From: Balamuthia mandrillaris | Lineage: Eukaryota | Length of the DNA stretch: 64,000 bases | Reading direction: 5' to 3' | Assembly (NCBI GenBank): GCA_031835245.2 | Contig: JAVKOQ020000094.1 | Location: 1 to 64,000 of the forward strand | Shown: in pieces, positions 6,896 through 12,800 of the stretch | Layout of the letters: each line of letters opens with the position of its first letter | Position numbering within the stretch: position 1 is the first letter of the stretch | Notes under the pieces: generated by a model | Seen by the model: the letters and a program-made list of their open reading frames with translations, nothing else | What the model was told of the DNA's origin: nothing | Database searches by the model: none | Made by a program: the position numbers and the translations under genes

Positions 6896-8711
6896 TTATT
6901 CCTCCATGCTCCTAAACGCGGCTTGGACTTGCTCTTGGATAGCCTTGAAGCGGGAGACAAGGGCTTCTTCACCGTCAGCGGGGTCTTCGAACTTCATGCT
7001 GGTGAGCTTGTAGATGACATCACCCATGTGTTGCCTGATGGCATTGAAGGTGATCTTGCCGTCCTCGTTGGTCTTCTCGACGGCCTTCTGGGCGAGGTCG
7101 TGGAAGAGAATGATGTTACGCAGCAGCCAAATGGTCTTGTAGAACGGGCAGAAGCGATCGTAGGCGGAGAAGCCATTCTGTTGCAAGAAGTCGTCACGGA
7201 TGATTTTGGCGACCTCAAGGGTGATCTTATCGGACTCGGCGAGGGAGTCCTTGCCGACCAGCTGCACGATCTCTGTCAAGTTCTCTTCCTTCTGGAGGAT
7301 CTCCTTGCATTTGACCCTCAGGTTGGTGAACTCCGAGTCCACGGTGTCGTAAAATGACTCCAGAGGCTTCTCGTACTTGCTGAAGCTCACCAGCCAATTG
7401 ACGGAGGGGAAGTGCTTGCGTTGAGCCAACTTCTTGTCCAATCCCCAAAAGACTTGTACGATACCCAGAGTGGCAGATGTCACAGGATCGGAAAAGTCAC
7501 CACCAGGTGGCGATACTGCTCCTACAATGGTAACACTTCCTGTTCGCTCCGGTGATCCGTAGCAGCGTGCCTTTCCTGCTCGCTCGTAGAAAGATGCCAA
7601 CCTTGCTCCCAAATATGCAGGATAACCGCTCTCTAGTGAAGAGAAGGAAAAAAGAAATAAGAGAAAGGAAGAGAAAGGGAAGGAGTAAGGGAAACAAACC
7701 AGCAGGCATTTCAGCCAAACGTCCAGAAATCTCTCGAAGAGCCTCAGCCCAACGAGAAGTGGAGTCAGCCATCATGGATACGTTGTAACCCATGTCCCTA
7801 AAGTATTCCGACAGGGTGATACCAGTATAAATAGAAGCCTCACGGGCAGCTACTGGCATGTTGGAGGTATTTGCTACCAACGCCGTTCGTTTCATGATAG
7901 ACTCTTCTACATCCTTAATTTGTACTGTCAACTGCACGATGACAGTCAGTAAACGCGTGATAATACGGTCCCGAAGGGTGATAGGAACGCAGAGGGAGGG
8001 GAGGCTGGAAGAGAACAAAATATTGTACCTCAGGGAACTCCATCAATACTTCGGCCATCTCGTTACCTCGCTCTCCGCATCCGACGTAAATGATGACATC
8101 AGAGTTGGAGTATTTCGAAAGAGCCTGAGAAATCACAGTTTTACCACAGCCAAAGGCTCCTGGAATGGCAGCAGTGCCTCCCAACACGCAGCTAATTAAG
8201 TTGCACCTTGGTTAGTGATGGCAAAATTAGATACGTATGTAGAAGAGAGCATAACGAACGGGAAAAGAGCGTCAAGGACACGCTGGCCAGTCAGAAGAGG
8301 ATAATCACTTCGAAGCTTTTGGGCTACTGGGCGAGGATTTCGCACAGGCCAAGACTGAACCATTGTGAACTTCTTAACTTTATCTCCAAACTCAACTTCC
8401 AATACGGTGTCCTGTTGATGACGTAATAGCATCATTAGCGCTAAATAGATAGAAAGGTAACAAAAGAAAGAAGAGAAGAGGGAGAACAGACCTTCAGAGT
8501 ATAGTTGTTGGCCTCCGCAATGTAGGTAATAGTACCCATTTCATTAGGGGGAAGGCAAATTCTATGAACAATAAGAGAGTTTTCGACAACGCTTCCAAAA
8601 ATGTCTCCTCCAGTGATGTTGTCGCCAACCTGGTAGTGCGTGATATTGCAGAACAACATTTAAGCAAGTCACAAGGTTAAATAAATCAGGATGGCTTACC
8701 CTCAAATGTTT
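6896..8711 (-). CDS. vatA: V-type H+-ATPase catalytic subunit A, N-terminal region (about 140 aa) absent
   Basis: Motifs [54 protein letters not shown] and [13 protein letters not shown]. The reading frame is intact from [13 protein letters not shown] to the stop. An in-frame TAA lies just upstream and no further vatA exons are visible. Confidence 0.93.
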
Positions 8712-9078
8712 CTCGTACAAGGCTTACTTTTTATGTATAGATTGGTGTTGCTCTCAGAGCAAATAAACTTTTTATTACTACTACAAGTTTGCCCCCCACC
8801 CCACCCCCCCACCCCACCCCACCTTCGCCAAGTCATGGGGTCACTTCTTCGTCTTCGTCACACTCTCTCTTTTTCAAAGCTATTTAGAGAATGTAAAGAA
8901 TTTGAAGGTGTAAAAATTTCCTTGAAAAATTTTAAAAGCAATTCATAAAATTTTTGTAGACATGCTTGAGGAGCACTGTGTTTTTTAGGTGCACTCCTAA
9001 AAACCTGCTCCACTTGACCTTCATTTGTGCTTGGCAAAAAGAAGAAAACAAATTGAAAAAAAGAACAGAAAAGAAAAG

Positions 9079-9592
9079 ATGGACGCCATAGCGGGCATGG
9101 TTGGCAAGCAGCTGGTCACGAACAAGTTCAACTCCTTCACCGAAGATATCTTTGGCAAAGAGGAAAGCCCCAGCCACGAGAATTTGGGACCCACCGCCGA
9201 AGAGATCAGCCGAGCACGGGAGGAGGTAAGCAGGAGGGAGCGCCTTCTATCGCAATCCAATCTGTCTCTCTCTTTGACTGACTTTTTTTTTTTAAAAAAA
9301 GGAGCTGAAAGAGAAACGAAAGAGAGAAGCCAAGAATGCTAAAATACGTGAACAGAACGAAAAGAAAAGAGGTACGTTCTGTCGATGTCTTTATTTTTTA
9401 AACACAAGTTCAAGAGAAGAGAAAGAAATGTTAATCAATCATGACTTTTTTCTCTTGTTTCTTTTAGAGGCCATTCGTAAAAAATATGGGCTCTCGAAAG
9501 ATGGGGCAGGTTCTTCCTCTTCGTCAGGTTCGGTTAGCTCCTCCCGAGCGGTAGTCCAAAGCAGCGACTGTTTGGGCTGTTCTTTGTACTGA
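9079..9592 (+). CDS. Complexin-like small protein, 113 aa, 3 exons (9079-9225, 9302-9371, 9468-9592)
   Basis: Spliced product: MDAIAGMVGKQLVTNKFNSFTEDIFGKEESPSHENLGPTAEEISRAREEELKEKRKREAKNAKIREQNEKKREAIRKKYGLSKDGAGSSSSSGSVSSSRAVVQSSDCLGCSLY. Donors are GTAAG and GTACGT, and intron phases are consistent. Confidence 0.7.
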
Positions 9593-9810
9593 TTGTTTAT
9601 CGCTCGATCGGTTTTTTTTTCTCTCATAACAACAAGCGAGCGCGAGAGAGAGAGAGAGAGAGAGAGAGAAAGAAGAGGGAAAGAGGTGATTCTGTTTTGG
9701 ATCATGCTTTGTAAATAATAACAAGTTCAAACTAACTACAGTGAAGACGACGACGTGTAATGCTTTTTTTGTTTTGCGTTTTCCTTTTGTTTTGTGGTTT
9801 GTTGTTTTCT

Positions 9811-12800
9811 TCAGTCAGAAGCTTTGGTGTTTTGTGCCACCACCTCTCGCTCCATCGCCAATGCCGACTCGTGCACATAAAACAGGAGATAACATTCCCT
9901 CTCCGTTCCGAATGGAAACCCGTTTGCATCTTTGTACTATTTGTGTTTTGGATTGAGATCAGAAGCAAAAAAAAAAAGACTGGAAAGGGAAGGAAGAGAA
10001 AGAACAAGATAGGAGGAGGAAGAAGCACAAGAAGAAGGAAGGCAAACCTGTCTGACCCAAGAATCATTGTACAATTTCCACCTTTCCTCAAAGACATCAA
10101 AGGCGTGGGTGTAGTAATGGCCGGAGGAGGCTTCCGTGCCGTTATGACTGACAATGCTGCGCAGATAAAAGTTTGTGGAAAGTGGCGTTTCTCCGTTTTC
10201 TTCTCCGCTTTCTCTTCCGCTTGCCGCGGATGTTGTTGAAGTTGATGAGGTCGTCGTTTTTGTTGTTGATAATTCTTCTTGAAGCATCTTCTCTTTTCCT
10301 TTGTCATTTTGCTGTTTTGGTTTCTTCCGTGTTTGACTTTTTTGTTGCTCTTCTGCTTCGTCTTTCTCGTTTTCGTCTTGTTTCTTTTTTGTTATTGTTT
10401 TCGTTGTTGGGGTTGGCTCCTCTTTCTTTCGTTTCCTGTTATCACTTCGGGTGTTCTTCCGTGTTGTTGTTATTGTTGTTGACGGTTGTCTGTTGTGTTC
10501 TTCCCCCTCCTCTTCCTCTTCTTCCTCTTTTTTGTTGCCCTTCCTCCTTTGTGCAGTCGATTTTGCGCCTCTCTTTGCTAATCGCTTCTTCTGTTTTCTC
10601 TCTTCCTCGTTGGCTTCTTCATGCTTTTCTTCTTCTTCTTTTTCTTCTGCTGCTTTTTCTCCGTCTTCACTTAGCAGTTGAGCAGAATCTGCAAATATGA
10701 AGCCATGTTTGGGTCGTTCTTGACGTCGGGCACGTTTTCTCCTTGTTGTTGTGTTTGTCTCTTCCTCACTATCAGCATTGTCATTCTCTATTTCTTTCGC
10801 TTTTTCTTGTTTTCTTTTTGCGCCTGCTCTTGTTCTTGCTGTTGTTGCTGAAGTTTTTGTAGTTCTTCCACTGCGTGTTGTTCGTCGTGATGATGCTGTT
10901 GTTCGGGGAGATGTCTTCTTATGTTTTTTGCTGGTATTTACTTCCTCTTCTTCATCATCTACATCATCCTCCTTTTCCTTTCGGTTTGTCGGTTCCACGA
11001 TCAAGAAATCTTCTATTTCGTCTTCTGAGCTTGACAGGTTTGCAGGTGCTCCGCCTTTTAAACCACCACTCTGCGCGACTTGCAGAAGAGGATTTTTTGG
11101 TGCTGTTGTGAGGTTGGTGCTCACTTCTTTTTCCTTTTCCTTTTCTTTCTCTTTCTCCTTTTGCTGTCGGATGGCTTCAAAGATTTCTTGTTGCTGACGT
11201 GCAGCTTCGATGCTGTCTTCTCCGCCAAGCACACTCAGCGTTGGATCTTCCTCCTCAGCAAGACTGAGAGCCATTGCAAGGCGTATTTGCTCCTGTTCTT
11301 GGCGTAGTGCTTGTTCTTTTTCATACTGCCGCTTGCTTTCTTCTTGTGCCTTTTTCAGTTCTTCTTGTTCTTTCCGCGTTGCAAAAGAAATAGAAGAAGA
11401 AGTCGAAGTAGTAGAGGAAGACGACAATACGCTCTCTAGACTCAAGTCGTCATCCTCATCGCTTACCACGGCAAACGGATCGACGTCATCGAGAGTTGTT
11501 GATGTTTTTGTTGCTGAGGTATTTGCAGTTGTTGATGAGCGCAAAGGAGACGAACTATTTGCAAACAGAGAAGCACGAGAAGAGGTTGATAAAAAGGCTG
11601 AAGAAGATGAAGAAGTTGAAGAAGATGAGGAGGAGGAAGGTTCGTAAGATGAAGAAGGTTTAGCTGAAGAGGGAATGCTGTTGTCATAGGCAATATCATC
11701 AGTCGGATCAATAATATCGAGGCGATTGACATCACTGTGAAACGGTGGCTGCGTGTCTTTGTCACACATATCAGCTATTGTGGTCGCGTTTTTGTAGTGA
11801 GGATTTACGAAAAGAACAAAATAAAAAAGGAGCGCAGGGAGAGAGAAGTACTTACCCACGTTTAATATTTTGTCGATGGTAACGGGCGTGTTAAGTTTGG
11901 TGAATACAGGGGTATCGCCGATTTGTTGGAACCGCACTATCTGGAGCACAAGTACTCGTGGTAAACGCCGAAAGCTGAGCCGTTCGATGAACGTTGTGCG
12001 TTCTTGGCATTGATCACAGGTTTTCTCCACTTCTTTCTACGGCATTTTAAAAAAAGTGGCATGTATAAGAAAAATTCGCACAAGAAGAAGAATAGGAACA
12101 AGAACAAGCATACTTTTTCCTCAAGGCCAAAGTACATGCGCAACAGCGTATTTACAGAAGGTGTTTGGTCCTTGTTTTCACTCCTTTTTAAAAACAATAA
12201 GCTGTCCTGTCAGTATTTTTGTTTAAAAAAAAAAAGGAAACGGAAGCAGAACAGAGAAAGTAGATGGTTACGTACGGTGTGGGCATAGCCACCGGAATGC
12301 TTATGTATATTTGAGGGTGAGAAGTGTGATGACCGCAGCTACAACCGACTTGCTCTTGGCTAACTTGGCAGTAGTAGTTGAGTATAGAAGGACATGGCGC
12401 CTGCTCCACCTCCATCTCCTCCTCACTTTCTTCGCGTTTTTCCGTTTGTTGTTCTTGTTGTGTCGTATCTTTCGTCGTACTTTTGTTGCGCTCTTTCTCC
12501 TCTCTTTGTTCTTGTTCATCTTCTTGTTTTTTCGTCATTGCTTTTCCGCTATGTTCTATTCTGTTTTCATTGCGTGTCGTTTGTTGTTCCTTTTTCTTTT
12601 TAAGTTCTGCGTTCACTTGTTGTACGTCCGTTTCCAAAAGATCCAGAAACACTATCAAAAACTCTTGTGCATCCTTTTAAAATGGACATACAGGCTGTTA
12701 ATAAGAGAAGAAAAGAAGAGAAAGAAAAGAAGATTATACTTGTTGTCTAAATCCTCGGAACGTGGCAGAGGCTCGAGCAATGGCTTCTTTGAATCGGTCT

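Follow-up and report, generated by a model that had tools for sequence, protein, structure and literature searches.

A transcribed and spliced gene of the amoeba Balamuthia mandrillaris that very likely encodes a divergent complexin

The window analyzed here, the first 64,000 nucleotides of a Balamuthia mandrillaris contig, contains a three-exon gene that is transcribed and spliced, with its reading frame supported. Judged by its sequence, the 113-residue product is very likely a divergent homolog of complexin, which modulates the release of vesicles at nerve terminals. Our best explanation of the observations taken together is an expressed divergent complexin, likely lipid-anchored, that probably binds assembling SNARE complexes and would speed vesicle fusion. 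The host had been taken for an amoebozoan from the DNA alone, and the source label of the matching public protein record agrees: B. mandrillaris belongs to Amoebozoa, Discosea.

Gene structure and genomic context

Joining the three exons listed in Table 1 yields a 113-residue protein that ends in CSLY. Many alternative combinations of GT-AG introns likewise keep the frame open, so it is the RNA reads that decide the gene model, and these reproduce both junctions of the three-exon GT-AG model in the preliminary description (9225/9302 and 9371/9468) with exact coordinates. The first joint was seen in run X6 (4 reads with 4 different starts) and run X7 (5 reads, 3 starts) but not in X5, which had no RNA reads over the gene; the second was seen in X6 (2 reads, 2 starts) and in one X1 contig, and in neither X5 nor X7. 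The counts are low because only about 3–5% of each raw run was sampled. None of the four runs had any RNA coverage over the interior of intron 2 (9397–9437), and at this low depth no read spoke for retention. Reads and contigs differ from the window at four places in the coding exons (silent changes at codons 34 and 62, a missense change at codon 95, and an in-frame extra Ser in the linker), and comparison by hand showed the frame to be intact despite all four.

The public record, P0001 (145 aa, annotated as a hypothetical protein of B. mandrillaris), was the single protein retrieved with exon 1; it begins with a stretch identical to the exon 1 translation and keeps intron 2, which adds 32 partly hydrophobic residues that split the central helix.

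Table 1. Features of the gene and its immediate surroundings, in window coordinates
Feature	Position	Strand	Description
V-ATPase subunit A gene	6899-8790	-	looks 5'-truncated
Exon 1	9079..9225	+	codons 1-49: N-terminal segment, short linker, start of the E/R-rich accessory-helix equivalent
N-terminal segment, residues 7-25, KQLV	9097..9153	+	predicted amphipathic
Intron 1	9226..9301	+	76 nt, GT-AG, phase 0; 9 RNA reads, 2 of 3 raw-read runs
Exon 2	9302..9371	+	end of accessory helix and central-helix residues 57-72 (from 9323)
Intron 2	9372..9467	+	96 nt, GT-AG, phase 1; in frame, stop-free
Exon 3	9468..9592	+	end of central helix (IRKKYGL, to 9493), Ser/Gly-rich linker, Cys107, CaaX box, stop codon
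CSLY, predicted prenylation box	9578..9589	+	basis: complexin Cxxx ends; prenylation predictors
Ubiquitin hydrolase fragment	9940-12036	-	Pfam; directly after the gene

The Pfam-recognizable neighbors between 1670 and 63312 (COX6B, a winged-helix linker histone H1, PP2C, V-ATPase A, WD40, EXS, RPL8, mTOR and an ankyrin-RING protein) make up an ordinary housekeeping context. No SNARE Pfam match was found in the 22 neighboring ORFs scanned, and an Rfam scan of 8200–10000 gave no match. The neighboring RPL8 scores similarly against plant, insect and vertebrate proteins, which would fit a non-animal host but does not prove one. On the left-hand side, the usual N-terminal motifs of V-ATPase subunit A were not found in the gene at 6899–8790, and its first ~140 codons are apparently missing. 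Eleven RNA reads in each of X5 and X6, together with an X1 contig, match the window only over 8715–8784 and carry other sequence before 8715. This 8714/8715 junction lies ~360 nt 5' of the start of the complexin gene and is likely an assembly misjoin or a strain rearrangement; because the reads point to it, the left-hand neighbors are no proof of the setting of the gene. Near 8761 there is an AATAAA, which points to a 3' end belonging to a different gene.

Evidence for complexin homology

The evidence that owes nothing to a search pattern derived from the gene comes from Pfam and from a protein Atlas built on language-model features. Even in its intron-retaining form, P0001 has a single Pfam match at E<=10, and that match is Synaphin (PF05835; E 2.8e-5, residues 7–94), at 24.9 bits against a curated cut-off of 27 bits. 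Since it ends at residue 94 of P0001, the match has no contribution from IRKKYGL; the single exons gave no Pfam match. The top three Atlas neighbors of P0001 were all complexin clusters (0.87, 0.87 and 0.86, with 179–181 shared features), scores that lie below the 0.9 lead mark and serve as leads only. With Synaphin clusters skipped, the Atlas left no usable match, and its structure search returned nothing above the bar (model pTM 0.29). Single-sequence searches with P0001 recovered nothing but the query, both among 111 word-sharing candidates and among 1.84 billion representatives, and matched none of the complexins in the PDB at E<=10; these nulls say little about absence because the same searches missed animal complexins too.

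Aligned with five complexins by MAFFT, P0001 acquired, unprompted, a 32-residue gap exactly over the retained intron 2 (several smaller sequence sets misaligned with P0001). In a profile search of proteins that scored 7,975 candidates, this six-sequence alignment retrieved 119 further proteins among the best 120 of 141 matches, 117 of them with PF05835, and it also retrieved the five solved complexin chains. Apart from P0001, every named source among those best 120 of 141 matches is an animal, and the matches without a name look like members of the same groups. Three coral-type complexins (L119, P0002 and P0003) are long, at ~190–206 aa, and in L119 the central-helix region is tandemly repeated; these may be real duplications or assembly artifacts.

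The spliced protein was scored on profiles of animal-type complexins. A DNA pattern made from the gene's helix motif matched at least 119 loci across 57 of 64 metagenome parts and 6 viral loci, 73 of them open through the motif, and the first profile comprised 26 full-length complexin-like ORFs from these matches, with the amoeba protein excluded. When nine of the 26 ORFs and three fragments were scanned, 12 of 12 scored above the Synaphin cut-off. Against the 26-sequence profile the spliced protein scored 34.9 bits, the intron-retaining form 18.9 and the reversed sequence 8.6; a 107-sequence profile, again without the amoeba protein, gave 32.4 bits for the spliced form versus 18.4 for the intron-retaining one. 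No full shuffle (0/1000) and no local shuffle (0/1000) reached the real score on either profile. Residues 1–56 alone scored 10.6 bits on the 107-sequence profile, a value reached by 0/1000 full and 15/1000 local shuffles. The test is partly circular, the 26 sequences having been gathered by a pattern derived from the amoeba gene itself. When the nine residues of that pattern were held fixed on the 26-sequence profile, 1/1000 full and 90/1000 local shuffles reached the real score, so much of the score outside the motif is regional composition.

These controls bear on the possibility that the resemblance is convergent, the protein being small, charged and helical with an IRxKYG motif and a terminal Cys that arose by chance. 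Its low-complexity E/K/R sequence would allow this, as would the 90 pattern-fixed local shuffles, the failure to find a pairwise match among the 1.84 billion representatives, and the 3 of 34 non-complexin pattern matches that reach 20–27 bits. We nevertheless consider it improbable: Pfam and the Atlas indicate complexin independently of the gene-derived pattern, the N-terminus, helix, motif and CaaX box occur in complexin order and spacing, all three decoys scanned lacked a Synaphin match, and the other 31 of the 34 score 9.4 bits or less. Three metagenome loci in the 20–27 bit range, L016, L036 and L063 (each 3–578), carry weak TPR matches, a hydrophobic segment and a look-alike central-helix tail; L016 has no Synaphin match. 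Complexin homology, proposed from the DNA alone, thus stands as very likely on the sole Pfam match, the Atlas neighbors and 32–35 bits on complexin profiles.

Protein layout and proposed mode of action

In alignments, the N-terminal segment is followed by the accessory helix, the central helix and the C-terminal membrane element, an order that fits complexins (~110–160 aa). Small size, part order and helix register are shared with the complexin/synaphin family (PF05835; complexin-1 in 5W5C and 1KIL chain E, squid synaphin in 1L4A chain E), from which the amoeba protein differs in being ~20–40 residues shorter, in having no long C-terminal amphipathic domain, and in its amoebozoan host. The preliminary description had called the N-terminus complexin-like. 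Its KQLV resembles the KQ[LM]V N-terminal motif of the invertebrate-type complexins L117, L044 and P0025, and the hydrophobic moment of its best 11-mer (0.51) compares with 0.34–0.51 in four complexins, but the likeness is weak when the segment is taken alone (3.6 bits, reached by 30/2000 shuffles).

The central helix is the most informative part. Residues 57–81 align without a gap to residues 48–72 of complexin-1 (PDB 5W5C chain E), with 12 of 25 identical: R57, K60, E69 and R72 correspond to R48, K51, E60 and R63, and N68 replaces R59. All eight signature residues (R48, K51, E60, R63, I66, R67, K69, Y70) are identical. Eleven positions are more than 90% conserved in a set of 89 distinct helices taken from 116 of 145 sequences; the amoeba helix matches nine, seven of which lay in the search pattern or anchor so that only E60 and K74 were free. 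At the other two it has Leu in place of I72 and Asn at the R59 position, which is Arg in 88 of the 89. Further departures from complexin-1 are Asn for Y52, Arg for E56 and Lys for M62, which make positions 52 and 62 polar. The complexin-type helix of the preliminary description holds for IRKKYGL, which is in register; the loss of R59 and the polar residues at 52 and 62 had been overlooked. According to the accessible part of PMC13454271, R48 and R59 are critical SNARE-contact arginines, and the double change R48L/R59H abolishes SNARE binding in complexin-2. Because R59 is one contact residue only, Asn68 marks the protein as a variant, and membership in the complexin family is likely but not proven.

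The C-terminal CSLY had been described as CaaX-like, and it makes a plausible box. Among 112 distinct Met-start complexins, 60 end in Cxxx, including CSLM and CSLQ; CSLY also resembles CSIQ, and the protein departs from the CaaX-box complexins in its last residue, in a second Cys three residues upstream, and in a Ser/Gly linker that replaces the acidic helical tail. Tyr is an unusual final residue for a CaaX box. In the accessible portion of PMC9231725, 12 of 13 models predict prenylation of CSLY; of four yeast-trained predictors, SVM-ESM-1b and PrePS are positive and FlexPepBind and Freq negative. Yeast GGTase-I occasionally accepts Tyr at the X position, as stated in the available text of PMC10942308. 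CaaX boxes occur in vertebrate complexin-3/4 and in many invertebrate complexins, and complexin-4, the weakest SNARE binder, is concentrated on the membrane by its prenyl anchor (both from the part of PMC4611016 open to us).

On these features the protein is likely a lipid-anchored SNARE regulator. The model below takes its domain roles from the accessible parts of PMC4611016 and PMC13454271. Prenylation of the Cys of CSLY would hold the protein at a membrane, taking the place of the missing long C-terminal domain. Residues 57–81 would be helical and dock in antiparallel orientation into the syntaxin/R-SNARE groove, with contacts through R57, R72, I75, K78 and Y79; the preceding E/R-rich helix would steady this one, and the amphipathic N-terminus would touch the bilayer. 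The changes at 52, 59 and 62 may reflect a different amoebal SNARE surface, or a weaker binding offset by the anchor. The net effect would be faster or better-placed exocytosis that needs no Ca2+ sensor. An ancestral complexin role of this kind, the speeding of exocytosis without synaptotagmin, was proposed in 2026 (PMC13454271, in the sections available), and in an amoeba such a synaptotagmin-independent, fusion-promoting role would be more fitting than that of a Ca2+ clamp.

The same departures would also fit a true complexin homolog that has given up classic SNARE binding and serves as an adaptor held at the membrane by a prenyl group: the amoeba helix has lost R59, H/Y52, E56 and the hydrophobic residue at 62, the protein has the longest branch of our tree (1.67 versus a median of 0.24), and its C-terminal domain has shrunk to a Ser/Gly linker. 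We regard this as unlikely, if less so than a chance look-alike, given that the equivalents of R48, K51, K54, E60, R63, I66, R67, K69, Y70, G71 and K74 all persist at precisely matching positions, a pattern not easily accounted for except by selection on the same binding face.

Distribution, origin and implications

The protein, representative, metagenome and profile searches, all of limited reach, found no second amoebozoan complexin. No related locus appeared among 462 metagenome, 52 viral and 114 prokaryote pattern matches, and none of the 6 viral matches to the DNA pattern is a complexin. In run X2, which bears a second organism label, 0.11 of the sampled words of 8000–12000 were present; this organism could be a relative that carries an orthologue. 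In a tree of 25 rows, without a root (24 of 112 trimmed complexin sequences were kept after removal of near-duplicates), the amoeba protein has no supported sister, and the tree is uninformative on a donor.

That the gene comes from an animal or another contaminant, or was recently transferred from one, seems very improbable. The apparent lack of a second amoebozoan copy would be expected if it did, and the 8714/8715 junction just upstream, with its uninformative left-hand neighbors, leaves room for it. Against this, the region is present, with strain-level differences, in reads or contigs from studies P1, P3 and P4 under the same organism label (one of which may be the assembly's own source), and the introns are short like those of neighboring genes. 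The best pairwise score against the 119 complexins from the best 120 of 141 matches is 28.9 bits, which, together with the absence of a supported tree position beside any animal group, argues against a recent animal source. The same two observations cannot separate inheritance from an old transfer, and both ancient inheritance and old transfer are compatible with the data.

Complexin origin has been dated to unicellular holozoans, and the complexins of Monosiga brevicollis and Capsaspora owczarzaki are the earliest-branching described (PMC4137706 and PMC13454271, as far as their accessible parts go). Like Balamuthia, these hosts are unicellular and synapse-free, but they are holozoan; the comparison is by description only. 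In the literature listings we found no report of a complexin outside Holozoa; the survey of Yang et al. 2015 was outside that scope, so an earlier mention is possible. One Balamuthia/Acanthamoeba paper has complexin only in its reference list, and the available portions of PMC7934909, PMC9750855, PMC2639358 and PMC12022652 contained nothing further.

Somewhat tentatively, complexin may be older than Holozoa. On this view it would already have existed in the ancestor of amoebae, fungi and animals, or perhaps even before, as a prenylated accelerator of SNARE fusion that did not depend on Ca2+, and its short length, low complexity, interruption by introns and mis-annotation would have kept it from being noticed in protists. 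The present gene is an example of a family member that annotation can miss when a single in-frame intron is retained. If its identity as a complexin is correct, the family would have arisen before the amoeba–opisthokont split, with losses implied in lineages such as fungi, or would have reached the amoeba by an old transfer. The natural loss of R59 would make the protein a test case for the co-evolution of the complexin helix with its SNAREs. Choanoflagellate exocytosis has been called experimentally intractable (PMC13454271, available sections), and harmless culturable amoebae with an orthologue could serve to test the ancestral role of complexin.
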